UHGV virus genome: UHGV-0358078
Reading direction: 5' to 3' (one strand)
Source of the DNA: a virus
Length of the DNA: 13,471 nt
Positions within the stretch are counted from its first letter, which is position 1. Each line of letters begins with the position of its first letter. This document shows, one piece after another, positions 1,725 to 13,471 of this stretch. A model generated the notes under the pieces. The model saw only the letters and a program-made list of their open reading frames with translations. It was not told where the DNA came from and made no database searches. Made by a program: the position numbers and the translations under genes.

Positions 1725-2035
1725 TGATGGAAAGTAAAATCACAAACACATCGGCACCTGAGAACATTGTCAACTATATTCTCAGTGGCGGGTTGTTAGA
1801 AGACAACAAAGAAACGTGTGATAAACTCGTTTCTCAACTACTGCCGATTCGCTCAGAATATTGCGAAATCGTTATCTTAGGTTCCGAGTATTGCGTACGC
1901 TCTTACTGTCGTCGTTTCGAAGCCTTACGCGTTCCACGTACGTTAGGTGGTGTAATACTCTTAGTCTCTAACTTTCACAGTGCACACGTTCGTGTTGCAA
2001 CCTGGATTGCAAACGGAGGTAACAATGGTTTTTAA
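1724..2035 (+). CDS. Hypothetical protein (103 aa), Cys-rich
   Basis: ATG at 1724 shares one nt with the upstream stop (translational coupling). GAGG lies upstream. Several Cys residues (CxxxxxxC, CxxxC patterns), function unknown. Confidence 0.6.
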   Translation: MMESKITNTSAPENIVNYILSGGLLEDNKETCDKLVSQLLPIRSEYCEIVILGSEYCVRSYCRRFEALRVPRTLGGVILLVSNFHSAHVRVATWIANGGNNGF

Positions 2036-2333
2036 ATTACTAGGTTTCAAATCTTGTAAAGAGTGCGCAAAGCACGAAGAATATATCAAGTTATTAGAAG
2101 AAACAGTTGAAACGCAAAAAGAACTTATCTCTGAATACCGCGCGAAAACCGGTTCAGTAGAATATCTGGCTATCATTGTTTGTTCTATTGCGGAATTGGG
2201 TTGTGAGGGAAAATTACCTAAAGAAGAGATATTAAAACTATTAAAAGAAAAAACAGAGTTCTACCGTAAAGAAATTGATGATTATAAACGTGAAGTTATA
2301 AGAGCGAATTGGGAGGTTATTAATGAAGCGTGA
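2025..2333 (+). CDS. Hypothetical protein (102 aa), N-terminal CxxC
   Basis: ORF track starts at GTG 1980, but an in-frame ATG at 2025 has a strong SD (GGAGG 2015-2019, 5-nt spacer) and reduces the overlap with the upstream gene to 11 nt. N-terminal CKEC motif; K/E-rich helical C-terminus. Confidence 0.65.
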   Translation: MVFKLLGFKSCKECAKHEEYIKLLEETVETQKELISEYRAKTGSVEYLAIIVCSIAELGCEGKLPKEEILKLLKEKTEFYRKEIDDYKREVIRANWEVINEA

Positions 2334-2604
2334 AGCGGTTGTATTTCGTAGTAATGGTGACGTGGTTTTGTATCGTGGTAAGAAACGTATTCGTACGTTA
2401 GAATACCGAGAAGCAAAACGTTTTGTTGAAGAGTGTGCATGGTTAATGCATTACGAAGGGAACTATCGTGCTATCTTAGAAGCTCCGCGTTTAGAACGTG
2501 CGGTTGCACAGATGGCGATAGGTAATCCTAAGAACTGTTACCTGGCACGTAAGCCAAAATACCTACAGCGGCTTTCGTTAGGCAGCTTTATTGCCGGATT
2601 TTAA
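2323..2604 (+). CDS. Hypothetical basic protein (93 aa)
   Basis: ATG at 2323 with GGAGG (2312-2316) and a 6-nt spacer; overlaps the upstream stop by 11 nt. Lys/Arg-rich. Confidence 0.65.
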   Translation: MKREAVVFRSNGDVVLYRGKKRIRTLEYREAKRFVEECAWLMHYEGNYRAILEAPRLERAVAQMAIGNPKNCYLARKPKYLQRLSLGSFIAGF

Positions 2605-2634
2605 TAAAAATAATTTCAGATATATATTACCTAG

Positions 2635-2656
2635 GTGAGAGTTCAGCTACTCTCAC
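2635..2656 (+). other. Hairpin without downstream U-tract, upstream of the SD of gene 2686
   Basis: GTGAGAG (2635-2641) / CTCTCAC (2650-2656), 8-nt loop; followed by ttaaccaaacc, not a T-run. Confidence 0.45.
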
Positions 2657-2685
2657 TTAACCAAACCATTTTAGGAGCATATACC

Positions 2686-3180
2686 ATGAACTTCACTAGA
2701 CTTGATTACACTAACGAATTGGTTGACAAAGAAAAATACAAATTCACTGTTGACTTGGGTTACGGATTACTGGACGTAGAAAAAGATGTTCTGCACAAAG
2801 AATTCCGTGAGCAATTCGGTGCTTTGTTCTGCGCAGGTTTCCGCAGAAACACCATTGATATCGGTTATAGCGCAACAGCGTATACCGATGAAGAAATGTT
2901 TAAGCTGGTAACACAGATTGTCGGAACGCGTGGAGCCAAACGACTCAATTATTCCAACGAACTTGTTTCGAAAGAACATTACAAGTTCACCGTTAGACTA
3001 CCTGTTCGCCTCACAGAAGAAGATAAGAACATCCTCTATAAAGCCCTTCAAACCGAATTCGGTAAAGCGCTCAAAGTAGGGTTCCGTAATCGTAGTATCG
3101 ATATCGGAATTAGTGTGGATGTGTGTAGTGACGATGACCTTTACGAATTAGTTTCGGAAGTTATCGGAAAACATCTCTAA
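2686..3180 (+). CDS. Hypothetical protein (164 aa) built from two tandem ~76-aa repeats
   Basis: ORF track starts at GTG 2635 inside a hairpin; the in-frame ATG at 2686 has AGGAG (2673-2677) with an 8-nt spacer. Residues 5-80 and 86-161 align colinearly (RLDYTNELVDKEKYKFTV... vs RLNYSNELVSKEHYKFTV...; ...NTIDIGYS... vs ...RSIDIGIS...). Confidence 0.75.
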   Translation: MNFTRLDYTNELVDKEKYKFTVDLGYGLLDVEKDVLHKEFREQFGALFCAGFRRNTIDIGYSATAYTDEEMFKLVTQIVGTRGAKRLNYSNELVSKEHYKFTVRLPVRLTEEDKNILYKALQTEFGKALKVGFRNRSIDIGISVDVCSDDDLYELVSEVIGKHL

Positions 3181-3220
3181 ACTTAAATTAACACTTCGAC
3201 TTGTAAATAAGGAATAGAAT

Positions 3221-3694
3221 ATGTTTAGCTTAGAAATCAACAACAACGTTCATGCCGCTTTCCATTCAGTAGAAAAAACCTATAAAATTAAAGATCTGTT
3301 TACTGGCAGAAGCGATGCTTTTTCGCTGATTAAGAATGGATGGAGAAAAAGCAAAGAGCTGAAACGTGATTCAAACCTTTACATTATTGAACGTTTAACT
3401 GTAACCGACAACCTTGTCACTGCACGTTATGACTTTGTTGTAATGGACGCTTTCATCCCGTTAGACAAACTGGTTATCTTGGCTGACAATGGGGAACGCT
3501 ACGAGGCGGGCGAGAACGGTGAACGTTCATTTACTAATGACGGTAAACTAAAAGTTCGCCATTCTGTAATGGCAGTTTGCTACGATGGTGAATGGTTAAG
3601 ATCTCTGAATAAAGGATTGGATTTGATTGACGCCGATGATTTAGAAAATTTCGCCGATGTTTTCTCCAACTATTTGTTTGAATATAAGTGGTGA
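3221..3694 (+). CDS. Hypothetical protein (157 aa)
   Basis: ATG at 3221 with AAGGA 7 nt upstream. Contains a short peptide repeat (DNGERY / ENGERS). No recognised domain. Confidence 0.75.
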   Translation: MFSLEINNNVHAAFHSVEKTYKIKDLFTGRSDAFSLIKNGWRKSKELKRDSNLYIIERLTVTDNLVTARYDFVVMDAFIPLDKLVILADNGERYEAGENGERSFTNDGKLKVRHSVMAVCYDGEWLRSLNKGLDLIDADDLENFADVFSNYLFEYKW

Positions 3695-3699
3695 GTTCG

Positions 3700-4131
3700 A
3701 TGAGAAAAGAACTAAAATCAGAGTTACGTGATTACATTCGTAAATACCCAGCCAGTATTCCGGTACTGGCTTCACTCTCTTTATCGGGTATGGACCTTAA
3801 TACCCTAACGGTAGAAAAATTCCACGAAGTGGTGAAGTCGTCGTATCAAATTGTTACCGATATGTCAGTGCGGAAACGTGCTGACTACCCAGACGGTGAT
3901 TTCGGTACAGAGATGTTCACGGACTACGCAGTTGCGTATCTGATGGGACGTCACTTTATCGATAAACTCAATACGGCTGTAGAAGGAGAAACCGTTACGG
4001 AAATTGTCAATGCTTGGCAACAACGTATTGTGAGTGACGCTTACTGTCGTCAAGCCTTAAAGAAAATGTCGGCGGTAGCATTAACCAATGACCAACGTGC
4101 TTTAGAGTTCCTTAAGCACAACTACGAATAA
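3700..4131 (+). CDS. Hypothetical protein (143 aa), paralog of the gene at 4997..5428
   Basis: ORF track starts at GTG 3688; the in-frame ATG at 3700 has a GGTGAG SD-like sequence upstream. Same length as, and colinear with, the protein at 4997 (LKSELRDYIRKYPASIPVLA vs LKDDIRNYIRNNPIALGVLA; ...ADYPDGDFGTEM vs ...EEYPVGELGDTM; ...LEFLKHNYE vs ...LMYLAHNVR). Confidence 0.75.
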   Translation: MRKELKSELRDYIRKYPASIPVLASLSLSGMDLNTLTVEKFHEVVKSSYQIVTDMSVRKRADYPDGDFGTEMFTDYAVAYLMGRHFIDKLNTAVEGETVTEIVNAWQQRIVSDAYCRQALKKMSAVALTNDQRALEFLKHNYE

Positions 4132-4152
4132 TTTACCAAAAGGAAAAGTACC

Positions 4153-4920
4153 ATGTTTAATATTGAGATTACCCCACTCGTTAAAACTGAAATCCGTCCG
4201 GTTCCTGAAGCACAGTTACTCGATCAACTTTATCGTATATTCCTGGATAAAGGTGTACATTTCCGTGTAGAGCAGGTCAATGATGAAAGCATCGTGTTCT
4301 ACTGGACTCACAGCAACGATTATCTTTGCGATACTATCGCGAAAGAAATTGGTGAGTTGCTCAACCCAGCAGAAGGTACCACGAACGCCTGGGTAGAAAC
4401 GACCGAGACTGAACAACCGAAAGCCGAGGCCGAAAAACAGCAGAAAGACGAACCGCACGTCCTCTGGTACGAAGGTAAGAAGATTAAGGAAATTAAAGAA
4501 GCGTTAGAGACCCTCTATCACGACGATTTAGGCATTTACTGGGATAACAGCAAGCTCGTCGTTCGATTGAAGAAAGACGATCGTAACCTCATGGAAGATA
4601 TTCGTTCTATCGTTAAGCTGATCGATAACGACGCTGTTCGACTTATTTCGATTCATGGTATCGGAAAAGATACCGCTGATGAACTCATGCGTGTGGCTGT
4701 TCACGAACACAAGGAGAAAATTCATCAATCCGTTTACAAAGGTGAAACGCTCACCGTTTTGATCGACAACGATGTTGAGGTTTTCAAATCATTAACGAAC
4801 CTTTTGCGAAATGTTTCAACGGATTCTTATATCGAAAAAACACGTGCCTTGCTTCTCGAAAAGCTTTTTAATATTTACAACAAAGATTGCGATTGTCCTA
4901 ATTGTCAAAAACGTCGTTAA
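4153..4920 (+). CDS. Hypothetical protein (255 aa) with helix-hairpin-helix-like motif and C-terminal Cys cluster
   Basis: ATG at 4153 with AAGGA upstream. Internal LISIHGIGKDTADELM fits the HhH pattern (hxxhxGhGxxxAxxh) of non-specific DNA-binding modules. Acidic, K/E/Q-rich linker. C-terminal CDCPNC. Followed by a 16-bp palindrome and a terminator. Confidence 0.8.
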   Translation: MFNIEITPLVKTEIRPVPEAQLLDQLYRIFLDKGVHFRVEQVNDESIVFYWTHSNDYLCDTIAKEIGELLNPAEGTTNAWVETTETEQPKAEAEKQQKDEPHVLWYEGKKIKEIKEALETLYHDDLGIYWDNSKLVVRLKKDDRNLMEDIRSIVKLIDNDAVRLISIHGIGKDTADELMRVAVHEHKEKIHQSVYKGETLTVLIDNDVEVFKSLTNLLRNVSTDSYIEKTRALLLEKLFNIYNKDCDCPNCQKRR

Positions 4921-4928
4921 TTAACGAC
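4913..4928. repeat. Perfect 16-bp palindrome GTCGTTAATTAACGAC across the stop codon of gene 4153..4920
   Basis: Positions 4913-4928 read identically on both strands. Lies 18 nt upstream of the terminator stem. Confidence 0.8.
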
Positions 4929-4945
4929 ATTCTAAATTCAACCAA

Positions 4946-4978
4946 GGGGTGGTAATCCACCCCTCTATTATTGTATTT
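4946..4978 (+). terminator. Intrinsic terminator candidate
   Basis: Perfect 7-bp GC-rich stem GGGGTGG (4946-4952) / CCACCCC (4957-4963) with loop TAAT, followed by a T-rich tract (tctattattgtattt). Confidence 0.7.
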
Positions 4979-4979
4979 A

Positions 4980-4995
4980 CCTAAAGGAGCATTAA
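4980..4995 (+). promoter_or_regulatory. Conserved 16-nt translation-initiation block CCTAAAGGAGCATTAA, copy 2
   Basis: Identical to 476-491; immediately upstream of the ATG at 4997 and just downstream of the terminator at 4946-4978. Confidence 0.45.
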
Positions 4996-4996
4996 A

Positions 4997-5428
4997 ATGT
5001 TTTTCGTATTAAAAGATGATATCCGTAACTACATTCGTAACAATCCGATTGCGCTGGGCGTTTTAGCAGGTTTCTGTCGTCCAAATACTGACTTCGATTT
5101 AGTTAAGTTAGAAGAATATCAAGAAATTGTGAACACTACCTACATGCACATCTGTAGCTGGGGTAAACGTCCTCGTGAAGAGTACCCTGTGGGTGAGTTA
5201 GGTGACACCATGCACCGTGACCAGAACCTGATGCACGAATTCGTTGAATACACACTGGAAAATCTTAACTATCCGCTCCTGGTCGACACTGTACCAGAAA
5301 TGGTTGACGAATGGTTTAAACGTGTTTATAGCGATCCTACCGCCAACAAGTTACTGAACCAGATGTCACAAACTTCTCGTGACATCGACACTCGTACGCT
5401 GATGTACTTAGCACACAACGTTCGCTAA
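4997..5428 (+). CDS. Hypothetical protein (143 aa), paralog of the gene at 3700..4131
   Basis: ATG at 4997 with AGGAG inside the conserved 16-nt block 4980-4995. Paralogy to 3700..4131 described there. Followed by a strong UUCG-tetraloop terminator. Confidence 0.8.
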   Translation: MFFVLKDDIRNYIRNNPIALGVLAGFCRPNTDFDLVKLEEYQEIVNTTYMHICSWGKRPREEYPVGELGDTMHRDQNLMHEFVEYTLENLNYPLLVDTVPEMVDEWFKRVYSDPTANKLLNQMSQTSRDIDTRTLMYLAHNVR

Positions 5429-5435
5429 CCTCTCT

Positions 5436-5490
5436 CCGCTATAGGCTTCGGTCTATAGCGGAATTAATTTTCTTTCCCTTTTCTTTTTTT
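5436..5490 (+). terminator. Intrinsic terminator, 11-bp stem with UUCG tetraloop
   Basis: ccgctataggc (5436-5446), loop ttcg (5447-5450), gtctatagcgg (5451-5461), one G-U pair. Followed by a long T-rich tract (…ttttctttcccttttctttttttt). Lies 8 nt after the stop of gene 4997..5428. Confidence 0.8.
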
Positions 5491-5597
5491 TGTTATTTTG
5501 ACACCACTTTACTTACACCCTACCCGACTATTCCTATGCTGGCTGAGGGATGTAAAACGACCTCTTAAACCTTTTTTACTTACTGTGAGTTAACGCG

Positions 5598-6446
5598 ATG
5601 TCTCTTACGTCAAAACAGAAACTGCTAAAACTCATCAACACTGAAAACAATATTAGTCCACCGTTGACTTTCAGTGATGTTGATATCGGAGAACCTACTG
5701 GTACTGGGGTTGATACCCAGGTGGTTCTGACCTCTAAACTCAAAGGCGATGAGTCTACTACTTTAACAGTGACTTACCACCGTCGTAACTTACCTGACTA
5801 CCTAACAGGTGAGTTGGTATTCGGTAACGACAATGTGGTAACCGCATCCGATTTGCTTAATGCGATTAACGCAAAATACAACCTAAATATTTTACCCTCG
5901 GATATCGTTGACGCAAAAGTTGAAGGTGAAACCCATCAGCTTACCGCTAACGAGAAATCTTACGAGTGGTGCGGTGTAGTAACACTTACGCTGCGTGATC
6001 CTATTGACCTGACTGAACTGTTACCAGTTACTCAATTAGAGAATCTGGTAGAGTATCCGTCTACTAAGAAAGGTAACGCTGCGGTTTATTCTCACCCGAT
6101 TGATTTCACCGCAGAAAAAGATTACCTTGACCCGATTACTATCAACGACACCGTCGACTTAGTAGAGTTAGCCACTAAACTGGCTAACGTCGTTGATGAG
6201 AAATGGGTAAGTGTACCTAAAAACGCGGCTAACAACCTGTACGGTGCTAAAGTTATTTACGATGGCCCAACCGCAGGTTACGAAGGCGCAAATACGAAGT
6301 TCACTCGTGTGCTGGTACTGACTCTCAGCCCGTTGTGTTCTAACCTGACCGGTAATCTGTTAATCCACTTTAACGGTACCGATCGTCCGAAGTCGAAGAT
6401 TGAATTAGCACAGACTAATCCGGTCTTACCGGGATTCTTAGATTAA
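5598..6446 (+). CDS. Paralog-family protein (282 aa), possible virion/structural protein
   Basis: First ATG after a 169-nt intergenic region; weak SD (GTGAG). N-terminal ~70 aa (…LINTENNISPPLTFSDVDIGEPTG…TQVVLTSKLKGDESTTLTVTYHRRNL) is colinear with the N-termini of the genes at 6460, 9626 and 10234. T/V/N-rich, acidic composition. The structural role is inference only. Confidence 0.8.
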   Translation: MSLTSKQKLLKLINTENNISPPLTFSDVDIGEPTGTGVDTQVVLTSKLKGDESTTLTVTYHRRNLPDYLTGELVFGNDNVVTASDLLNAINAKYNLNILPSDIVDAKVEGETHQLTANEKSYEWCGVVTLTLRDPIDLTELLPVTQLENLVEYPSTKKGNAAVYSHPIDFTAEKDYLDPITINDTVDLVELATKLANVVDEKWVSVPKNAANNLYGAKVIYDGPTAGYEGANTKFTRVLVLTLSPLCSNLTGNLLIHFNGTDRPKSKIELAQTNPVLPGFLD

Positions 6447-6459
6447 GAGGATTACAGTA

Positions 6460-6957
6460 ATGACCAATCAAGAAACTATCTTCGACCTTATTAAAAAGGC
6501 TAACCCAGACGCTGAGTTCGACACCACCAAGGTCACGCTGGGTGACCCGGTCGTAACCACCGGTACGTACAATACCGAAATCACAGTTGCGTCAATTAAG
6601 AATCTCGGTTACACTAACGAACAAACGTTCCAGTATAACCGCATTGACGCAGGTTTGTATTTCCTGAACGTATTACCGAAACTGTTAGTGGAGTCTGCAA
6701 CGACTACCGCTGACTTACTGCCCGTAATTAACGAACAGTACAGCCTAACCCTTACAGAAGACGATGTATGGGTAGAACAGGTCGGTGAATTACCGCTGGA
6801 CGGCAGTGCAATCGAGCACGGCATTTTCTTCCGTCCTGAATGTTTAACCTGGGTAGGCGGTTTTACGGTGCGCGTTGCACGTAAACCTGCTGAAGATGTT
6901 GAACCTGCGCCAAAAGCAGCTAAAGCACGTACAACTCGTGCACGAAAATCCAAGTAA
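6460..6957 (+). CDS. Paralog-family protein (165 aa) with basic, A/K/R-rich C-terminal tail
   Basis: ATG at 6460 with AAGAGGA upstream. N-terminus (…LIKKANPDAEFDTTKVTLGDPVVT…NTEITVASIKNLGYTNEQTFQYNRID) matches the family motif. C-terminal PAPKAAKARTTRARKSK. Followed by a strong terminator. Confidence 0.8.
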   Translation: MTNQETIFDLIKKANPDAEFDTTKVTLGDPVVTTGTYNTEITVASIKNLGYTNEQTFQYNRIDAGLYFLNVLPKLLVESATTTADLLPVINEQYSLTLTEDDVWVEQVGELPLDGSAIEHGIFFRPECLTWVGGFTVRVARKPAEDVEPAPKAAKARTTRARKSK

Positions 6958-6960
6958 GAT

Positions 6961-6998
6961 TTGGGTGGGGTAAAACCCACCCAACGTTTTTCTTTTTT
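6961..6998 (+). terminator. Intrinsic terminator
   Basis: Perfect 9-bp stem ttgggtggg (6961-6969) / cccacccaa (6976-6984), 6-nt loop, then cgtttttcttttttg. Starts 4 nt after the stop of gene 6460..6957. Confidence 0.85.
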
Positions 6999-7021
6999 GT
7001 GTAAAATGGGAGTTAAACAAA

Positions 7022-7612
7022 ATGGCTGAACGTTGGACTAAAGAAGGTATTATTGAAACCAAAACGGATTTAGAAGGCGGGTACGTCAACGACCCTGACG
7101 ACTTAGGTGCAGAAACGAACCACGGTATCACGGTAACGACTGCACGTGAGTACGGTTATAAAGGGAAAATGAAAGACCTTACCCGTGCTCAAGCTTTTGA
7201 CATTTACGATCGTGGTTGGTGGAAGAAACTCAAACTCGATGAGATTTTCGCTATCTCGCCTTTACTGGCTGACCGGATGTTTGATTTCGGAATTAACGCA
7301 GGTCGTGCCAACTGCGTGAAATCGCTACAGCGTATTCTCAACGTGTTGAACAACGAAGGTAAACTCTACGCGGACATCGATGCTGACGGTGGAATGGGGC
7401 CTAAAACGCTGGGTGCGTTGAACGCGTACCTGAAATACCGTAAAGATGAAGGGCTAAGCATTTTAATCTTTGCGTTAATCTCGCACCAAGTAACTTACTA
7501 CACGGAAATCTCCGAGAAACGTAAGCGAAACGAGAAATACACCTACGGCTGGTACGGCCGCGTGTTCAGAGAAATGGCAGATTATGCGGTAAAAGCGGGG
7601 TTAGTAAAATGA
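7022..7612 (+). CDS. Endolysin, GH108-type N-terminal domain plus PG_binding_3-like C-terminal domain
   Basis: ATG at 7022 with GGGAG upstream. N-terminal EGGYVNDPDDLGAETNHGIT matches the GH108 signature (EGGY…DPxD…GGxTxxGIT). Downstream FDFGINAGR…LQRIL…DADGGMGPKTLGAL matches the usual C-terminal peptidoglycan-binding domain of this family. No N-terminal signal or SAR segment. Confidence 0.85.
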   Translation: MAERWTKEGIIETKTDLEGGYVNDPDDLGAETNHGITVTTAREYGYKGKMKDLTRAQAFDIYDRGWWKKLKLDEIFAISPLLADRMFDFGINAGRANCVKSLQRILNVLNNEGKLYADIDADGGMGPKTLGALNAYLKYRKDEGLSILIFALISHQVTYYTEISEKRKRNEKYTYGWYGRVFREMADYAVKAGLVK

Positions 7613-7713
7613 ACTGGTTTGCTAAACTCTTAGCGTTATTGTGGAAAGCGTTAACGTCTGGTCGAAAACGTAAAGACGAAAAACGTGGGCAAGAATTCTT
7701 CTGGTTTTTGTAA
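7609..7713 (+). CDS. Candidate small ORF (34 aa), amphipathic N-terminus and basic centre; not in the ORF track
   Basis: ATG at 7609 overlaps the endolysin stop (ATGA at 7609-7612); GGGG lies 8 nt upstream. Translation MNWFAKLLALLWKALTSGRKRKDEKRGQEFFWFL, stop TAA 7711-7713. Fills the gap between the endolysin and the next gene. Too short for a conventional transmembrane holin. Confidence 0.35.
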   Translation: MNWFAKLLALLWKALTSGRKRKDEKRGQEFFWFL

Positions 7714-7728
7714 GGAAAGGTGTGGGTA

Positions 7729-8394
7729 ATGGAGAAGCTTCAATATAAACGTTTAGATAATAAGTGGTTTGTATTAACGGAGGATTACCATTATCCGTTT
7801 ACGTTACGTGAGATTTATCACGACCACGTACACTTAGACCGTGCGGTTTATTTAACCGGTGTATTACCTGACACGCAACTGTGGTTAACCGCTCCGAAAG
7901 GGTTCGTTACCGATTTAGCGTCAATTCCTGAACACCTCCAGGGAATTTTCCATCCTGACGGACCGTGGGCACCTGCGGCCTGCATTCACGACTTACTCTA
8001 TCAAAAATGTAACACGGAGCGTAGCTATCCCATGACACCGGGTGGTAACGTTTCGCGTATTATCGATAAAGAGTTCTCTGACTTAACATTCCTTCGTATT
8101 ATGCAGTCGTTGGAAATCTCGCCGTATATCTGCCAAACGTTTTATAAAGCCGTGGCGGAGTTCGGTTGGGATGCTTACGTAGACCCTAACGCGAAGCCGT
8201 CTTATACCACTAACGACTACCGTACGTTAGATTACAATCGAAACTATTTGTTCGTTCGCGAGTTTAAGGAACCCGCTATTCCTGACCACGAACGTGTTGA
8301 TATCACCACAGGTTGTCCCGTTAATGTCAAATACCTGAACATCAAACGGGCTTTTCTGTCTGGGAGGGAAGATGTTTCATCCAAATCCGAGTAA
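7729..8394 (+). CDS. DUF1353-like protein (221 aa)
   Basis: ORF track starts at GTG 7720; the in-frame ATG at 7729 follows AAGGAAAGGTG. GFVTDLASIP…ACIHDLLY resembles the (G)xxTDxASIP…HDxxY signature I associate with DUF1353; recalled from memory, not searched. No hydrophobic segment. Confidence 0.7.
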   Translation: MEKLQYKRLDNKWFVLTEDYHYPFTLREIYHDHVHLDRAVYLTGVLPDTQLWLTAPKGFVTDLASIPEHLQGIFHPDGPWAPAACIHDLLYQKCNTERSYPMTPGGNVSRIIDKEFSDLTFLRIMQSLEISPYICQTFYKAVAEFGWDAYVDPNAKPSYTTNDYRTLDYNRNYLFVREFKEPAIPDHERVDITTGCPVNVKYLNIKRAFLSGREDVSSKSE

Positions 8395-8887
8395 CTTTAA
8401 ACTCAAAGAGTTAGTACCACAATCGTACATCGCCAAATACGGTGATTCTGCAATTCGGTTTATGAACCCGTTGTTAATGATTTCGCTACAACAGATTCGT
8501 AACCGTTTCGGCAGAATGGTGATTAACTCCTCTGCTGCGCAACAGCGTGGCCTAAGAACCTTAGACTTTTTCATCAACCAAGAAAAGCCTAAGGGTGGTA
8601 ACTATAAACAACGTGCTTTACAACTCTACTCTGATTCAGGGAGTCAGCACAAGTTCGGTAATGCGTTTGACGCAACGCTTTTAGATTCGACAGTAAAACA
8701 AGTCCACGACTATATCGCCGCTAATCCTGACGAATTTCCGTTCATTCACTTTATCGAATGCGACATCAGTTGGTTACATATCGACGTTCGTAACCAACCG
8801 AATATCACGTTCTGGTCACCGAATCGCGGTACTGTGAAAGTCGTGAAACAAAGCCCTATCGATTGGAGCGCCTTAGTTAAAATCTAA
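8372..8887 (+). CDS. Peptidase M15-like (LAS-type zinc peptidase), putative peptidoglycan peptidase
   Basis: ATG at 8372 directly after GGGAGGG; overlaps the upstream gene by 23 nt. SQHKFGNAFD matches the SxHxxGxAxD zinc-ligand motif of M15/VanY-like peptidases, and WLHIDVR resembles the second His motif (xHVDVR). Followed by a palindrome and a bidirectional terminator. Confidence 0.7.
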   Translation: MFHPNPSNFKLKELVPQSYIAKYGDSAIRFMNPLLMISLQQIRNRFGRMVINSSAAQQRGLRTLDFFINQEKPKGGNYKQRALQLYSDSGSQHKFGNAFDATLLDSTVKQVHDYIAANPDEFPFIHFIECDISWLHIDVRNQPNITFWSPNRGTVKVVKQSPIDWSALVKI

Positions 8888-8939
8888 GCGCATAATCCTT
8901 AACTTAGGGTGATTATACCTTATTTTGTATAAACCGTCT

Positions 8940-8953
8940 TAGAACGCGTTCTA
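8940..8953. repeat. Perfect 14-bp palindrome TAGAACGCGTTCTA in the convergent intergenic region
   Basis: Positions 8940-8953 are self-complementary; followed by gcgcgtttt and then the bidirectional terminator at 8979-9003. Confidence 0.8.
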
Positions 8954-8978
8954 GCGCGTTTTACGGACAAAATAAACC

Positions 8979-9003
8979 TACCCTCCTGCTAAGCAGGAGG
9001 GTA
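8979..9003. terminator. Bidirectional terminator between convergent genes
   Basis: Stem taccctcctgc (8979-8989) / gcaggagggta (8993-9003) with a 3-5 nt loop. A/T-rich on both sides (aaataaacc upstream, tttattatt downstream), so it is followed by a U-tract in either direction. Confidence 0.75.
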
Positions 9004-9007
9004 TTTA

Positions 9008-9487
9008 TTATTCTACCGGGTGCAGCATAGTTCCGGTGTCTGGGATACTGCCTTCGTGACATCTGAAGAACGTTACGCCTTTACCTTCACCCGTTTTGTA
9101 GTTGACGGTGGAATACGCAAACGTTGGGGTTTTCGACAGTAACCCGTTTACACGGTAATAGCGCTCACCGGTAACGACGTTTAAGTTACCGTCCACCTTA
9201 CCTAACAGGTCTTTATAAAGTTGCGGAGATTCAATTTTACCTTCGTCCCATGTAGCGACCCAATTCGCCCCTGTATCCATGACTAACACCGAAAGGGGCA
9301 TCAGTTTTAGGCTAGACGGTACCGGTTTAAAATCAGCGAATTCTTGAGAAGCACCTGTACAGGTGTAAATGACCATATCGTGTTGGTCAACAGGTACGGT
9401 GGAGAACTGACCTTCTGCGTTCGGCTGAATAGCACAACCTGCCAATGTCATTACAAAAGCAACGACCACGAGAATGCGTTTTAGCAT
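9008..9487 (-). CDS. Predicted outer-membrane lipoprotein (159 aa)
   Basis: N-terminus MLKRILVVVAFVMTLAGC has a basic n-region, hydrophobic core and lipobox L-A-G-C, with Ala at +2 (no Asp retention signal). SD-like GGGTGAG upstream on the minus strand. Opposite in orientation to all neighbouring genes and followed by a bidirectional terminator. Confidence 0.8.
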   Translation of the reverse strand: MLKRILVVVAFVMTLAGCAIQPNAEGQFSTVPVDQHDMVIYTCTGASQEFADFKPVPSSLKLMPLSVLVMDTGANWVATWDEGKIESPQLYKDLLGKVDGNLNVVTGERYYRVNGLLSKTPTFAYSTVNYKTGEGKGVTFFRCHEGSIPDTGTMLHPVE

Positions 9488-9625
9488 AATCTCACCCTTA
9501 TTAAAATTAAGAAAAATTATTTTTTCAGGTTAGCGCCTACTGCCAACCGTCATATCTATATTTTAGGAAATGTCTAAAATAACTTTCTTATGCAATCCAC
9601 CCCTACCACTTACGAGGTAAAAAAG
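9488..9625. promoter_or_regulatory. Divergent intergenic region, probable promoter region for the lipoprotein gene (minus) and gene 9626 (plus)
   Basis: 138-nt AT-rich gap between divergently oriented starts. On the minus strand, TTGGCA (plus-strand tgccaa 9541-9546) is followed about 17 nt later by an A-rich -10-like hexamer. This is a weak match, not a confident sigma-70 promoter. Confidence 0.3.
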
Positions 9626-10162
9626 ATGGCTAAAGCCTTCAAACAACAGCTCATCGAAGCTGTAATTGCTAAAAACTCAGACACCGCTTCTAATCTGACG
9701 GTTGGTGATGTCGATTTTGGCGCTGTTGCTGAGTTCAGCGGAGACGCTGGTCGTAACACCAAAATTACGCTGACCGCCAAGGCAGAAAGCCAGAACTTCA
9801 AAGGCGAGAAAGAATTCCATTATATCCGTCTGGCTTCTCAAGACCTGATCGGTGCCAAAGCTTACGAACAAGCCGGTAGCCTCGAACTGGAAAACTCGGT
9901 CATTGTAACCAAACTGAACGAAGAAATGGTTACTAAAGGTTATGTCGATGACGAGTTTGCAGAGAGCGAACTGTCCATTGAGAAAACTGACGGGGATAGT
10001 GGTGCTAAAGTTTACACTGTCAAAGTAAGCGAAGGCCACATCAAATTCCTGGCTGGTACCATTGCCACCTTCACTTATTCCAACCCAGCTCCTGAGAAGG
10101 TAGCTCTGGACGGTCTGGAAGGTGAACTTGATGGCTTTACTGCACCGGGTGTCGGTGGCTAA
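9626..10162 (+). CDS. Paralog-family protein (178 aa), possible virion/structural protein
   Basis: ORF track starts at ATG 9590 with no SD. The in-frame ATG at 9626 has GAGG with an 8-nt spacer and gives an N-terminus colinear with the paralog at 10234 (MAKAFKQQLIEAVIAKN… vs MAATNQMMLVALYNAAN…). Both end in ELDGFTA. Followed by a G12-containing hairpin. Confidence 0.8.
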   Translation: MAKAFKQQLIEAVIAKNSDTASNLTVGDVDFGAVAEFSGDAGRNTKITLTAKAESQNFKGEKEFHYIRLASQDLIGAKAYEQAGSLELENSVIVTKLNEEMVTKGYVDDEFAESELSIEKTDGDSGAKVYTVKVSEGHIKFLAGTIATFTYSNPAPEKVALDGLEGELDGFTAPGVGG

Positions 10163-10171
10163 GTAAATTAA

Positions 10172-10198
10172 ATCGGGGGGGGGGGGACCTCCCCCGAT
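10172..10198 (+). terminator. Terminator-like hairpin containing a G12 homopolymer
   Basis: atcgggggggg (10172-10182) pairs with cctcccccgat (10188-10198), one G-U pair; followed by atttctc…tattttt. Starts 10 nt after the stop of gene 9626..10162. Confidence 0.6.
10175..10186. repeat. G12 homopolymer tract
   Basis: Twelve consecutive G at 10175-10186, inside the hairpin after gene 9626..10162. Confidence 0.9.
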
Positions 10199-10233
10199 AT
10201 TTCTCTAACTCGTATTTTTAAGGACCTAAGATA

Positions 10234-10764
10234 ATGGCCGCTACTAACCAGATGATGTTGGTCGCGCTTTATAATGCTGCTAACACTGAGCTACCACATC
10301 AGATTACTGATAAAGAAGTGTCCTTTGGTCTCCCTACTGCGCTGGAAGGCGAAAGTAAGAATACCAAAGTTACCATGACTGCACTACCGGGTTCTGAGAA
10401 TTTCAAAGGCGAAATCGAACTGCATTACGATCGTCTGGAGCCAGGTGTTGTAGGGCGTATTGAACTAACTGACGATCTGTCTCGTTGGGAAGATCAAAAC
10501 GAATTGCGCGCATGGTTACAATATTACATTAATAAAGTTAAACCGGACGATGCTATTCATCCAGCGGACGTTTCTTATTCTACCGAAGACCAGAAAGACG
10601 AACATGAAAACGTCACTCTGCGTACCGTGACGTGCACCGTTACCGAAAAGAACCTCCGTTATAAACCAGGTGTAATGGCAACTTTCGTAATTACACCGAA
10701 GGTTGTTGATAATCGTATTGACCTGGCCACCACCAACGGTGAGTTGGACGGTTTTACTGCTTAA
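10234..10764 (+). CDS. Paralog-family protein (176 aa), possible virion/structural protein
   Basis: ATG at 10234 with AAGGA 9 nt upstream. Shares the family motifs (…VSFGLPTALEGESKNTKVTMTALPGSENFKGEIELHYDRL…) and the C-terminal GELDGFTA. Followed by an 11-bp bidirectional terminator. Confidence 0.8.
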   Translation: MAATNQMMLVALYNAANTELPHQITDKEVSFGLPTALEGESKNTKVTMTALPGSENFKGEIELHYDRLEPGVVGRIELTDDLSRWEDQNELRAWLQYYINKVKPDDAIHPADVSYSTEDQKDEHENVTLRTVTCTVTEKNLRYKPGVMATFVITPKVVDNRIDLATTNGELDGFTA

Positions 10765-10802
10765 TCGCTAAGTCAACTACTATAACAAAAAAATAATAAA
10801 TT

Positions 10803-10829
10803 TACCTACCTCCTTTACGGAGGTAGGTA
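10803..10829. terminator. Bidirectional terminator between convergent genes
   Basis: Perfect 11-bp stem tacctacctcc (10803-10813) / ggaggtaggta (10819-10829), loop tttac. Flanked by aaaaaaataataaattt upstream and tttttattct downstream. Confidence 0.8.
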
Positions 10830-10833
10830 TTTT

Positions 10834-11508
10834 TTATTCTAATCCCATTTCCAGTGCAAGAGCACGGATAGTGTCGTAGTCACGCTGTTCAGCGTACTGA
10901 CGAATTTCACTTTTCTGGGCAGACATCGCGTTGTGTAGCTGTTGGTCACGTTTCACAATAGCCGCCAGCAACGTTTTACATTGTTCCAGCGTAAACGGTT
11001 CTATACGTGTATTCGACGTGTCCAACCAATAATCCGGTGCAGTTTCAGACTGGATATATTGGCCCAGCATCTGACGAGAGGTTTCGTCAGCTTGGAAATG
11101 ACGACCGTCAACTTCGATATAACCGTGACGCTGGTCTTCGTATCGGTGTTCAATTTCCAACATGATTTTCTGGATATCTAAATAGATATAGCGAGACGTC
11201 GAGCGCATATTCGAACGAATCTCATCCAGATCAATCTCCAGAACGTCAGTAATGAATTCTTTTGCTTTATTCAGTGTAAACTTCGACTCGATAGGAGACA
11301 TTTCGTAAGTTTGCATCTGAGCTAAAGCTTCTTCATCACTCATCCCTTCAATCAACTTATAGTGCAGTAAAGCACAGAACCCCGTACGTCCACGGTCTTC
11401 GTTACCTACACGCTCCATGTAGTTACCGTGACGGTCAATTGGGAGATCGTGAGCGAAATAACGCGCTCGAATCTCTTCTTTCGTTAAGCTTTTGTTAGAA
11501 GCAGACAT
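10834..11508 (-). CDS. Hypothetical protein (224 aa), last gene of the radical SAM operon
   Basis: ATG at 11508 (minus) with GGAG 7 nt upstream; overlaps the upstream gene's stop by 25 nt. Stop sits next to the terminator hairpin at 10803-10829. No motif recognised. Confidence 0.75.
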   Translation of the reverse strand: MSASNKSLTKEEIRARYFAHDLPIDRHGNYMERVGNEDRGRTGFCALLHYKLIEGMSDEEALAQMQTYEMSPIESKFTLNKAKEFITDVLEIDLDEIRSNMRSTSRYIYLDIQKIMLEIEHRYEDQRHGYIEVDGRHFQADETSRQMLGQYIQSETAPDYWLDTSNTRIEPFTLEQCKTLLAAIVKRDQQLHNAMSAQKSEIRQYAEQRDYDTIRALALEMGLE

Positions 11509-12050
11509 TCTTCTTCTCCAACCATACCTAATTCTTGCAGCAAGCCAAAATCAATCAACTGGAAGGTTTCAGAGAGATCGTTTGACCACACCACGTTTGC
11601 AATGTCGCGTTCTTCATCCGTTAACTGTGGTAACACATTTTCGTTGAACGTCTGATGCTCTACGTAATACGCATCGTAGATAGACGTGGAACGTAAGCAA
11701 CGGATCGGCATACGCGGGAAAGACACCGCTAATGCAGCAATAGATGCGCTACTCGGATTCTCCGCAGAATAACGAAGCAATTCGATCTTGTGGCGTGGAT
11801 AGTCCAGTACGCGTTGCTCGAAACCCGGATTACGTTTTTCGATTTCCACAACGGACTCATGGCCTGTTTCTGTACAGTAAACGGGAATCATCACGTTTAG
11901 CCCGTACTTAATTAACAGGGGTTTAATCTCATCTGTAAAGTCTTCGCCGGGGATAATGGCGTGGACGTTATAGAGTTTATGTTTGCGCAGAAAACGCTCA
12001 ACCAGGTGGAGTTTACGCTTCGTAAAATTGTGGATCAGAATTGATTTCAT
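11484..12050 (-). CDS. Hypothetical protein (188 aa), radical SAM operon
   Basis: ORF track begins at ATG 12074 with no SD. The in-frame ATG at 12050 is preceded by GAGG with a 6-nt spacer, which also shortens the overlap with the radical SAM gene to 38 nt. No P-loop or PP-loop motif. Function unknown. Confidence 0.7.
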   Translation of the reverse strand: MKSILIHNFTKRKLHLVERFLRKHKLYNVHAIIPGEDFTDEIKPLLIKYGLNVMIPVYCTETGHESVVEIEKRNPGFEQRVLDYPRHKIELLRYSAENPSSASIAALAVSFPRMPIRCLRSTSIYDAYYVEHQTFNENVLPQLTDEERDIANVVWSNDLSETFQLIDFGLLQELGMVGEEECLLLTKA

Positions 12051-13347
12051 TATTTGCCTCAGTAGGTTGTGCATTTAACGCACGTTTAGCTTGCTCACGC
12101 TCACGCGTACATTTCGGACAGTAACAAACAGACGAATCGTGCAGAGACGATGCGTGGACGGTACCCGTACGTTGACGCCAGTATTCTGCCGCCATCAGTT
12201 TTGCAGTCGTCCAACCACATTGACGTCGTTCAGCGTGGTACGCCTTACGGTCTTCCAGTGTCCCTTCACCGTTTTCGTAGGAAGCGGCTGCACAGCTCCC
12301 ACAACCGTGTTTCATCGGACAGCCTAAGCACGTTTCAGGATAGTTGGTGTATTGCGTCTGAATCTCTTCCAGCAGTTTCCCGCCGTCTAAGCTAACAAAC
12401 TCACGACCGACTAACTCAAACACCGCAGAGCGTGACGTTACCGTTGACATGAATCGGTTACAACCATACACCTTACGGTCAAAACCTAAGCAGGTCATAA
12501 ACGTCAACGTCCCACAGAACGGACGTAAACGTTCAGGGTTATAACGGTGCGTGTCGTCGTACAGCAGTTTATCACGCCAATCTGGGTCCCAAATCTGACG
12601 GAAATCCAGACCTTCAGGAATGATGTGGGACAACACGTTACGTGGATTGGTGTGCAGCCCTTTCTCAATCCAATAATCCATCACCTCGATCATCTGCAAC
12701 GCAATATCCGTTGCCATGCTCCGTGGAAGGATATCTTCGTACGTCACGTTACCTGAAATCGTACCGCCACCGGCAATATCAATTAACGACTTCATACTCG
12801 CCGCGTAATGCGGTAAGGTTTCGGTCGTGAAGGTTGCCTTGATACCCAGTTCGGCAATCCCCACTTCTTTTAAGTAGTTATAGCCACGAACGGCGGCTTC
12901 GTAAGAACCCTGACGCGTCGTTGTAAAAATACGATAGCGGTCATGAACTTCTGGCAACCCGTCGATAGACACACCGATGGAGAGTTTGTCTTTCCAACGC
13001 TCAACAATCTCACGGTTTAACGGACGGTCTAACAACGTCCCGTTCGTGGAGATACTGAACATATACGGACGATTATGCTCCTTACACAGCTGTTCTGCGG
13101 TTTCAAACGCCGCTAACAACAGTTTCGGTTGCATAAAAGGTTCGCCACCGATGATATCAATAATGACGTCGATGTTCGGAATATCTTTATCACGCTCAAA
13201 ACAGGCGTGTAAGAAATCCACGATATCCGCCGCTTTGTTATTACGCGGATACTTACGTTCGTAACAATACTCACAATCTAAGTTACAAGACAGGTTCGTT
13301 ACCACCTGGTAAGTACGTTGTGAACGTGGTGCTTCATTATTGCTCAT
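12013..13347 (-). CDS. Radical SAM enzyme with C-terminal SPASM-type Cys-rich domain (anSME-like architecture)
   Basis: CNLDCEYC (CX3CX2C) at residues 21-28; IGGEPF SAM-binding motif; STNGTLL and SIDG…HDRYR motifs typical of SPASM-family radical SAM enzymes. C-terminal clusters CGTLTFMTC…C and CLGCPMKHGCGSC (CX2CX5CX2C), plus a further CYCPKC. ATG at 13347 with AGGA 9 nt upstream and an in-frame stop three codons upstream. Confidence 0.9.
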   Translation of the reverse strand: MSNNEAPRSQRTYQVVTNLSCNLDCEYCYERKYPRNNKAADIVDFLHACFERDKDIPNIDVIIDIIGGEPFMQPKLLLAAFETAEQLCKEHNRPYMFSISTNGTLLDRPLNREIVERWKDKLSIGVSIDGLPEVHDRYRIFTTTRQGSYEAAVRGYNYLKEVGIAELGIKATFTTETLPHYAASMKSLIDIAGGGTISGNVTYEDILPRSMATDIALQMIEVMDYWIEKGLHTNPRNVLSHIIPEGLDFRQIWDPDWRDKLLYDDTHRYNPERLRPFCGTLTFMTCLGFDRKVYGCNRFMSTVTSRSAVFELVGREFVSLDGGKLLEEIQTQYTNYPETCLGCPMKHGCGSCAAASYENGEGTLEDRKAYHAERRQCGWTTAKLMAAEYWRQRTGTVHASSLHDSSVCYCPKCTREREQAKRALNAQPTEANNEINSDPQFYEA

Positions 13348-13471
13348 CTTTGCTTATCCTTTTACGCTCTGCATAAATCACGCGTTTAATGTACTCGTAA
13401 GCACCTACTCCGATAGAGCAAGCAAGCTGATTGCACCCACCGTTTAAGATAGCCGGTGCATTCTGAAGCTG
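13337..13471 (-). CDS. 3' end of an upstream gene (partial, start beyond window); first gene of the radical SAM operon as seen
   Basis: The only minus-strand frame open from the window edge, 44 codons then TAA (plus-strand tta at 13337-13339); overlaps the radical SAM start by 11 nt. C-terminal translation …QLQNAPAILNGGCNQLACSIGVGAYEYIKRVIYAERKRISKDEQ. Not in the ORF track because it has no start within the window. Confidence 0.45.
   Translation of the reverse strand, partial: QLQNAPAILNGGCNQLACSIGVGAYEYIKRVIYAERKRISKDEQ

Follow-up and report, generated by a model that had tools for sequence, protein, structure and literature searches.

Two radical SAM enzymes encoded beside cysteine-repeat proteins in SPN3US-like jumbo phages: a candidate maturation system for tail-fibre components

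Results

Gene content of the radical SAM operon

The window analysed here, a stretch of 13,471 nucleotides (nt) from the virus genome UHGV-0358078, comes from a relative of the Salmonella jumbo phage SPN3US (Seoulvirus), to which it showed approximately 73% nt identity (Megablast, positions 10700-13471, 23 SPN3US-type genomes). Its minus strand carries the end of an operon that encodes two radical S-adenosylmethionine (SAM) enzymes, rSAM2 and rSAM1, the orphan protein p188, and p224, a protein that resembles tail-fibre-assembly (Tfa) chaperones (Table 1). Closer relatives were found among metagenome and Salmonella-assembly contigs (93-95.5% nt identity), in which the rSAM1 protein was identical to that of the window; the SPN3US-type homologues of rSAM1 were 83% identical at the amino acid (aa) level. 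These genes probably belong to a maturation system of the kind that acts on ribosomally synthesised and post-translationally modified peptides (RiPPs), related to TIGR04115/TIGR04114, which would modify tail-fibre-associated proteins built of cysteine repeats.

As originally predicted from the window sequence, the minus-strand reading frames were found to overlap, in the order rSAM2, rSAM1, p188 and p224, by 11, 38 and 25 nt. An AGGA, GAGG or GGAG (Shine-Dalgarno-like) sequence was present 5' of each start, within the upstream gene, and these sites, together with the overlaps, support the proposal that the operon is translationally coupled. The start of p188 was placed at the ATG at 12050 and not at the ATG at 12074 given by the open reading frame (ORF) finder, because 20 of 20 homologues begin with MK(S/P).LI. 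The operon, and a converging plus-strand DUF7941 gene, ended at a perfect hairpin that was called as a terminator on each strand, which bears out the bidirectional terminator proposed there. The claim that the region is richer in GC held for the rSAM1 gene (0.47-0.50, compared with approximately 0.37-0.48 elsewhere) and not for positions 10834-11500, which were average (0.43-0.44).

The operon runs on upstream, past the window edge at 13471. In relatives with an identical rSAM1 the gene order, on one strand throughout, was homologues of SPN3US gp170-167, two cysteine-repeat (CXXX) genes with a short third paralogue, p295, rSAM2, rSAM1, p188, p224 and the terminator. It is reasonably likely that the four window genes make up the 3' end of a longer late operon, the function of which would be the maturation of Cys-repeat, tail-fibre-associated proteins.

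Table 1. Positions of the operon genes, the terminator and other features in the window
Feature	Position	Strand	Description
rSAM2, 3' end	13337-13471	minus	44 codons and stop (stop 13337-13339); homologue of SPN3US gp164
rSAM1	12013-13347	minus	444 aa; putative radical SAM/SPASM maturase; homologue of SPN3US gp163
p188	11484-12050	minus	188 aa; orphan; homologue of SPN3US gp162
p224	10834-11508	minus	224 aa; tail-fibre-assembly-chaperone-like, DUF4376; homologue of SPN3US gp161
Intrinsic terminator	10803-10829	both	bidirectional; 11-bp stem with 6 GC pairs, 5-nt loop, T-runs
DUF7941 paralogue	10234-10764	plus	
DUF7941 paralogue	9590-10162	plus	
Lipoprotein-like gene	9008-9487	minus	159 aa; homologue of SPN3US gp159
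DUF1353 protein	7720-8394	plus	
Endolysin	7022-7612	plus	Glyco_hydro_108 and PG_binding_3
DUF7941 paralogue	6460-6957	plus	
DUF7941 paralogue	5598-6446	plus	

Cysteine-repeat proteins encoded upstream

In a six-frame scan, two Cys-repeat ORFs were detected 5' of p295, on the same strand as the operon, in 14 of 14 jumbo-phage loci, SPN3US and L002 (a contig from one of the closest relatives of the window). The same two ORFs were present in three contigs with an rSAM1 that is 100% identical to that of the window. In every relative the genes lay 0.7-1.6 kb upstream of the p295 gene (approximately 1.6-2.6 kb upstream of rSAM2), and no terminator-like site was found between the CXXX genes and p295. 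They were not visible to the original prediction because they are located past position 13471.

The encoded proteins are 127-142 aa in length and contain 20-23 Cys residues. A conserved, leader-like N-terminus of approximately 50 aa is followed by a core of about 20 tandem Cys-Ser-Gly-(Gly/Ser/Thr) units, which consists of 30% Ser, 25% Cys and 25% Gly and ends in a conserved CSG(R/P). The spacing of the repeat was four residues in 167 of 198 intervals, and the number of cysteines was kept while the X residues drifted. These proteins correspond to phrog_6085, a family labelled as of unknown function, and scored just below the threshold of the "Cys-rich repeat" target model TIGR04114 (17.6 versus 20 bits; E = 0.004-0.03).

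The first Cys-repeat gene (130 aa, 21 Cys; L001 ~16887-17279, minus strand; L002 5437-5829; L191 2673-3065; L192 2671-3063) lacks an annotation in SPN3US, and automatic gene calls omitted one or both of the CXXX genes in L002, L191 and L192. The second CXXX gene was crossed in L193 and L002 only by a called, out-of-frame ORF of 92 aa. The extreme composition of the genes is probably the reason for these omissions. Of the two CXXX proteins, the one that is annotated in SPN3US is gp166. A third, short paralogue was found in the closest relatives of the window (L002 6245-6451; L191 3511-3693; L193 3536-3712); it encodes 58-68 aa with 4 Cys, a Gly run at the end and the same type of leader (...THYNCNGSCSWACSGSC), and is seemingly absent from SPN3US, where the intergenic gap is only 240 nt.

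Co-occurrence of Cys-repeat ORFs and rSAM1-family genes

Co-occurrence was scanned for in IMG/VR loci using hidden Markov models from our own alignments and a regular expression for the Cys repeat; a locus was scored as positive when a same-strand ORF with at least eight repeat cysteines was present within 3 kb of a strong rSAM1-family match. Such an ORF was found at 78 of 80 loci, a count that overstates independence because the viral loci include many that are closely related to each other; both exceptions were at contig ends. The independent lineages are fewer than the loci but comprise jumbo, P2-like, lambda-like and T4-like (L109) phages as well as many gut-metagenome phages, and the number of repeat cysteines per ORF across the viral loci had a median of 34 and a maximum of 92. 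As a control, the same scoring was applied to bacterial loci with a match to the generic radical SAM N-terminus alone; a Cys-repeat ORF was present at 3 of 67, and two of these three turned out to be full-length relatives. Among the 21 best-ranked bacterial matches (L028-L048), which were mostly long or full-length, 14 had a Cys-repeat ORF. Bacterial loci ranked below these yielded no more than two short ORFs, of 29 and 40 aa, that fitted a looser pattern, and neither passed the test of at least eight cysteines.

The gene order was permuted in L195 (fibres, rSAM1, p188, CXXX, CXXX, p295, rSAM2). Gene content that is kept while the order changes is good evidence for a functional unit. It is highly probable that the Cys-repeat proteins are the substrates of the radical SAM enzymes.

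Two unusual types of locus were seen. In L175, a viral contig of 246 kb, four rSAM1-family genes in a row were accompanied by three Cys-rich proteins (1973-11278), one with CxC/CxxC-type repeats (CQCNCDNCDCDCDRC...) and two with 46 and 73 repeat cysteines, and the module appears much expanded. In two small viral contigs a distant relative of rSAM1 (26% identity) was neighboured by short CxxC-repeat ORFs with bulky residues (CLTCQTCNSCFNCDSCMNCYNCQYC...; L017 4153-4522 and L018 7555-7924), unlike the Cys-Ser-Gly type.

Sequence features of rSAM1

All of the radical SAM and SPASM-like motifs that had been predicted for the 444-aa protein were present: CNLDCEYC (C21, C25 and C28), GGEP at residues 67-70, STNGT and SIDGLPEVHDRYR, followed by the C-terminal cysteines C340-x2-C343-x5-C349-x2-C352 and the extra C408-Y-C410-P-K-C413. 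In radical SAM enzymes the CX3CX2C motif ligates the [4Fe-4S] cluster that binds SAM. The match to Pfam Radical_SAM (PF04055) was 53.3 bits (cut-off 29.5; E = 4.7e-14), and the protein belongs to the PHROG family phrog_1802. In an alignment of 28 sequences, down to 27% identity, GGEP and C21, C25, C28, C296, C340, C343, C349, C352 and C377 were invariant and C278 was near-invariant. A SPASM domain is defined by CX9-15GX4C - gap - CX2CX5CX3C - gap - C and binds two auxiliary [4Fe-4S] clusters. Seven conserved C-terminal cysteines of rSAM1 occur in the order of this pattern, with C278, (C286) and C296 before the C340-C352 block and C377 after it, the last spacing of the block being CX2C instead of CX3C. 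This region also aligned weakly to the SPASM segment of CteB, and the CYCPKC sequence represents a CxCxxC extension that is restricted to the jumbo-phage clade.

The top match of rSAM1 among 68 NCBIfam families was TIGR04115 (124.8 bits, E = 5.6e-36), below the equivalog cut-off of 350 bits; it was followed by PapB (110.8 bits) and then by geopeptide, HxsB and other SPASM maturases. The nearest match in the PDB was CteB (5wgg; E = 1.3e-12), with residues 20-178 of rSAM1 aligned to residues 106-264 of CteB. An N-terminal RRE domain was absent from rSAM1, in which CX3CX2C begins at residue 21, compared with approximately residue 106 in CteB. These best matches agree with the peptide- or protein-maturase class proposed earlier for the core enzyme, and the assignment of rSAM1 as a putative radical SAM/SPASM enzyme of that type is supported. 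Identity with anSME was rejected (56 versus 349 bits); there was no sulfatase, and the targets contained no C/S-x-P-x-R motif.

rSAM2, the gene cut by the window edge

The translation of the rSAM2 fragment in the window, QLQNAPAILNGGCNQLACSIGVGAYEYIKRVIYAERKRISKDEQ up to the stop codon, matched, residue for residue, the C-terminal end of a 305-aa ORF of L002 (7797-8714) that contains CNLDCSFC and GGEPL and matched Pfam Radical_SAM with 55.9 bits. A C-terminal motif, C-x(1-2)-C...GC, was invariant in 12 diverse homologues and suggests a single auxiliary, twitch-like site. The Gly/Cys tail that had been pointed out belongs to this C-terminal Cys motif of a second radical SAM enzyme and is not a substrate-like peptide; the first of its cysteines (GGC) was conserved, unlike the second (LAC).

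Several observations concern the records of this gene. SPN3US gp164 is recorded as "putative radical SAM superfamily protein 2" and its annotated start (NC_027402 / JN641803) is 41 codons too far downstream (L001 15187-15309); the annotated 264-aa protein lacks CX3CX2C, and the upstream open frame reads MTDQVESRIS...TSKCNLDCSFCGG. In Erwinia phage records the rSAM2 gene is often labelled "hypothetical". An additional rSAM2 copy, approximately 51% identical to the main copy, was located between the two Cys-repeat genes in the jumbo-phage contigs L006 (4563-5468) and L016 (4564-5469). In several genomes of the Salmonella phage SPFM records LR535901-LR535917, the matches to p295, rSAM2, rSAM1 and p188 were short, fragmented or frame-shifted and the annotated proteins were of odd length, which looks like record sequence quality and not biology.

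Partner proteins p188, p224 and p295

It had been stated that none of the three partner proteins of rSAM1 could be recognised; this remained true of the orphan p188, whereas rSAM2 proved to be a second radical SAM protein and p224 a DUF4376 protein. The p188 gene was always found directly 3' of rSAM1, and only in the jumbo clade and in a few divergent phages. The fold predicted for the protein, a partial (beta/alpha) barrel, resembles the radical SAM core without the cluster cysteines and is followed by a disordered C-terminal tail with a near-invariant Cys182.

In p224 the DUF4376 domain is C-terminal (PF14301, residues 121-210; 41.4 bits, cut-off 25, E = 2.2e-10) and is preceded by a part that varies between homologues; the PHROG matches of the protein were to tail and tail fibre families. 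Tfa chaperones are required for a cognate fibre, whose C-terminus they bind, to fold or oligomerise. DUF4376 is conserved at the C-terminus of Mu U/TfaMu and of the H-fibre chaperone of Campylobacter CJIE1, on which the function of the receptor-binding protein depends (PMC7882524), and is also found in the fibre chaperones Alteromonas V22 gp27 and A5 gp9 (PMC10579305). Like these Tfa chaperones, p224 combines a C-terminal DUF4376 with a divergent N-terminus and is encoded by the last gene of a fibre-related operon; unlike Tfa genes, that of p224 is preceded, in overlapping frames, by the genes for both radical SAM enzymes and p188 and not directly by a classical fibre gene. A DUF4376 gene also came after the rSAM pair in L109, an unrelated, T4-like phage contig, and in L196.

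The 295-aa p295 corresponds to SPN3US gp165 and its gene directly precedes rSAM2 in the jumbo phages. The jumbo family was matched to the prophage family with a probability of 98.5% (hhalign; E = 2.4e-15), and p295 is, as judged from such comparisons, a core part of the module. p295-like and rSAM2-like genes accompanied rSAM1 only in the jumbo clade and its nearest relatives.

Association with tail-fibre genes

Distant rSAM1 homologues (32-40% identity, near full length) were located in the tail modules of prophages, each time accompanied by a second, short radical SAM gene. A Campylobacter P2-like prophage encodes a tail fibre that matches Phage_tail_fib at its N-terminus (E = 1.8e-40) and closes with CXXX repeats (...GCNGCSGSCSGSCSSGCTACSGCSGSCSGKSDGCGC), and the gene for this fibre is followed by p295-like (250 aa), rSAM1, rSAM2, DUF1353 and then sheath genes. 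In a Deferribacter lambda-like prophage, gpJ and fibre-like proteins are followed by a 302-aa protein with a CTGS/CSGT repeat end of approximately 100 aa, and then by p295-like (250 aa), rSAM2 and rSAM1. In the closest non-jumbo group (L114, L116 and L117), the Cys-repeat region forms the C-terminus of proteins that matched tail-fibre PHROGs (E = 1e-23 to 1e-40 for L114 and L116; 1e-9 to 1e-10 for L117). In L108 and L195 the module adjoins Phage_T7_tail and Peptidase_S74 fibre genes. The Cys-repeat proteins of distant loci were mostly without a Pfam domain; one was fused to a GDSL esterase and one to an F5/8-type-C domain, fusions that are suggestive, although not proof, of receptor-binding proteins.

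In SPN3US the cluster comprises gp161-166 and is located directly downstream of gp167, a virion protein, and gp168-170, which have been described as baseplate or tail-fibre candidates by the Thomas laboratory (PMC5694885). Cys-repeat proteins would, somewhat more probably than otherwise, be fibre tips or fibre accessories in the phage from which the window derives as well.

Other genes of the window

The four DUF7941 paralogues on the plus strand (E = 3e-52 to 2e-7) match SPN3US "paralog family B", expected to be head proteins (PMC5694885), and two of them flank lysis-type genes. The endolysin gene is followed by a DUF1353 gene; a gene of this family was also present immediately 3' of the two radical SAM genes of the Campylobacter prophage (L024 12068-12433) and, in L196, 3' of that for the DUF4376 protein. 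A lone minus-strand gene among the plus-strand genes encodes a product with a lipoprotein signal (MLKRILVVVAFVMTLAGC, lipobox LAGC) and no Pfam match, which could be a spanin or a surface or exclusion lipoprotein.

Discussion

Taken as a whole, the reading that is put forward here, tentatively and with slightly less than even confidence, is that many tailed phages build a part or accessory of the tail fibre from a tandem Cys-Ser-Gly-X polypeptide that is cross-linked by phage radical SAM enzymes, with 8 to more than 90 cross-links per chain. This would be a RiPP-style pathway that acts on a virion structural or receptor-binding protein in SPN3US-like jumbo phages, P2-like and lambda-like prophages and numerous gut-metagenome phages, with p295, p188 and a Tfa chaperone as accessories of its own.

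In such a pathway rSAM1 would modify the repeated cysteines by 5'-deoxyadenosyl radical chemistry, probably in complex with the adjoining p188. If the thioether-forming SPASM maturases CteB and PapB are a guide, each repeat would probably receive an intramolecular or inter-chain S-C cross-link; a thioether-type link of this kind is about evenly balanced against everything else. Other chemistries, namely formylglycine-type oxidation, epimerisation or another C-H functionalisation, are the alternatives, and formylglycine formation at 20 sites is possible, with nothing pointing there. rSAM2 might introduce a second modification or act on a subset of sites, and p295 may present the substrate, standing in for the absent RRE domain. 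The Tfa-like p224 would then help the modified protein to trimerise or to attach to the fibre, the outcome being a rod-like tip or accessory of the fibre that is held by covalent staples.

Several points weigh against this reading. The Cys-repeat genes themselves lie outside the window, beyond position 13471, and their presence in this phage is deduced from contigs of 93-95.5% nt identity. The Cys-repeat proteins of the jumbo phages stand alone, at 130 aa, and are not fused to a fibre. The Pfam SPASM model gave no match to rSAM1 at E ≤ 1, and rSAM1 is not a TIGR04115 equivalog because it scored 125 bits against a cut-off of 350. The proposed cross-linking chemistry is an analogy, and the viral loci are not independent of one another. 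Finally, in the SPN3US virion tables gp160 and gp167-170 are present and gp161-166 are all missing (PMC5694885), and incorporation of the Cys-repeat proteins into the virion is therefore unproven here. The missing proteins fit enzymes and chaperones that are non-structural. For the Cys-repeat proteins, absence from virion mass spectrometry (MS) is weak evidence because the core is almost without tryptic sites and would be modified, and because the SPN3US MS searches of a related study (PMC10052503) had carbamidomethyl-Cys as a fixed setting.

The same absence from the MS tables would also fit Cys-repeat proteins that are precursors of a released RiPP-type product, from which the leader is removed after maturation by the two radical SAM enzymes and whose Cys-rich core would act on the host or on competitors (for host takeover, as a bacteriocin or for metal handling). 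Their architecture, a conserved leader of approximately 50 aa and a repetitive core, is precursor-like, the nearest families to that of rSAM1 are RiPP maturases, both in-silico and characterised ones, and in some bacteria (Margulisiibacteriota and Firmicutes) rSAM1 relatives adjoin CXXX proteins. This explanation is nevertheless unlikely: neither a protease nor an exporter gene was observed in the cluster, tail-fibre proteins of several lineages carry the repeat in their own polypeptide chain, the enzymes are translationally coupled to a fibre chaperone of the Tfa type, and the cluster is located inside a baseplate/fibre gene block.

A location among structural genes would also suit a radical SAM pair that modifies another phage protein (homologues of gp167-170, the DUF4376 chaperone or the C-terminal Cys of p188) and to which the Cys-repeat genes are mere neighbours. 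anSME-type SPASM enzymes do act on folded proteins, and the disordered tail of p188 bears a near-invariant Cys. However, the 78/80 co-occurrence with Cys-repeat ORFs spans very different phages, from most of which p188, DUF4376 and gp167-170 homologues are absent, and the CXXX genes were retained in spite of the permuted gene order in L195, which leaves this explanation improbable.

The nucleic-acid or nucleotide modification or anti-defence role suggested originally (QueE-, viperin- or NrdG-like chemistry) is very improbable: the weak partial matches of rSAM2 to viperin, QueE, NrdG and MoaA models (E = 1e-10 to 1e-13) were confined to the N-terminal cluster-binding region of the generic radical SAM core and fell short of the cut-offs of these families by 5- to 10-fold, partner genes of the NrdD, Que or nucleotide-metabolism type were absent within 10 kb, each genomic context found was a tail-fibre module, and rSAM1 carries a putative peptide-maturase SPASM domain. 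Identity with QueE, NrdG, viperin or MoaA was rejected (QueE, NrdG and viperin models, 15-40 bits versus cut-offs of 126-260; best scores when MoaA is included, 40-52 bits versus 131-284; generic N-terminal core only). An operon of the NrdG/NrdD type was not found, so that the cluster is not an ordinary one in that sense, and of the two options that had been raised the evidence favours modification of a protein or peptide. A role in sugar-nucleotide chemistry, considered on account of a cytidylyltransferase fusion (P0131) and weak CTP_transf_3 and GlmU matches, was dropped because the matches were faint; the P0131 neighbourhood instead contained a faint CXXX-target match.

Modification of tail-fibre-associated Cys-repeat proteins has its nearest known kind in the CXXX-repeat system of TIGR04115/TIGR04114 (and TIGR04117), a family defined in silico in NCBIfam/TIGRFAMs. 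CXXX-repeat-type systems were reportedly defined by Haft and Basu in 2011, and to our knowledge there is no characterised product of the TIGR04115 system. As in that system, to which the best family match of rSAM1 belongs, adjacent targets have a Cys at every fourth residue and a Cys-repeat neighbour is near-universal across the rSAM1 family. The phage module differs in that it adds a second, twitch-like radical SAM enzyme and p295 (220-300 aa, without a known fold), to which the jumbo phages further add p188 and a Tfa-type chaperone, and in that its targets are, or would attach to, tail-fibre proteins and are not short, stand-alone peptides.

CteB/SCIFF (5wgg), AlbA and PapB share with rSAM1 the radical SAM core, a Cys pattern like that for two auxiliary clusters and Cys-rich, repetitive substrates, which are putative in the case of rSAM1; PapB makes six Cys-X3-Asp thioethers in freyrasin. 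Unlike CteB, rSAM1 is without an N-terminal RRE/PqqD-like domain and its last SPASM spacing is CX2C and not CX3C. The acceptors that the phage repeat offers are Ser, Gly or Thr and not Asp or Glu, and the putative substrates of the phage module have 130-490 aa and up to 92 Cys. In sactipeptide and ranthipeptide pathways the SPASM enzyme links the Cys sulfur to an alpha, beta or gamma carbon, as a thioether, on a precursor that bears a leader; a leader-like N-terminus and a Cys-rich core are likewise present in the proteins of the phage module. HxsB/HxsC resemble the module in that a SPASM enzyme and a shorter, non-SPASM radical SAM enzyme are encoded beside a repeat-containing target. Identity with HxsB/HxsC was rejected and the likeness is architectural only, since the scores were far below the cut-offs (rSAM1 to HxsB, E = 7.5e-21, 74.4 versus 370 bits; rSAM2 to HxsC, E = 1.8e-12, 46.8 versus 267.9 bits); no HxsA, HxsD or His-Xaa-Ser repeat ORF was present in the loci.

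In the literature, coverage of which was incomplete so that an earlier description is possible, no paper that joins radical SAM enzymes, Cys-X3 repeats and tail fibres was found. Within the same incomplete coverage no function was found for SPN3US gp163 or gp164. The Cys-repeat genes are invisible in current phage annotation because gene callers miss them.

If the proposal that phage radical SAM enzymes cross-link Cys-repeat fibre components is true, it would join two separate fields, radical SAM/RiPP enzymology and phage host recognition. Known stabilisers of phage fibres are metal sites, disulfides and chaperones; an enzyme-installed, covalent modification would be a new kind of structural modification on a tail-fibre component. 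The SPN3US-type "putative radical SAM superfamily proteins 1 and 2", so far annotated without a function, would gain one, and the TIGR04115 family would gain a natural and genetically tractable substrate, as SPN3US has an amber-mutant system. Receptor-binding proteins expressed alone would misfold where radical SAM maturation is required, which would matter for engineered pyocins, Innolysins and host-range swapping. Furthermore, a densely thioether-stapled rod would be of interest to protein engineers.

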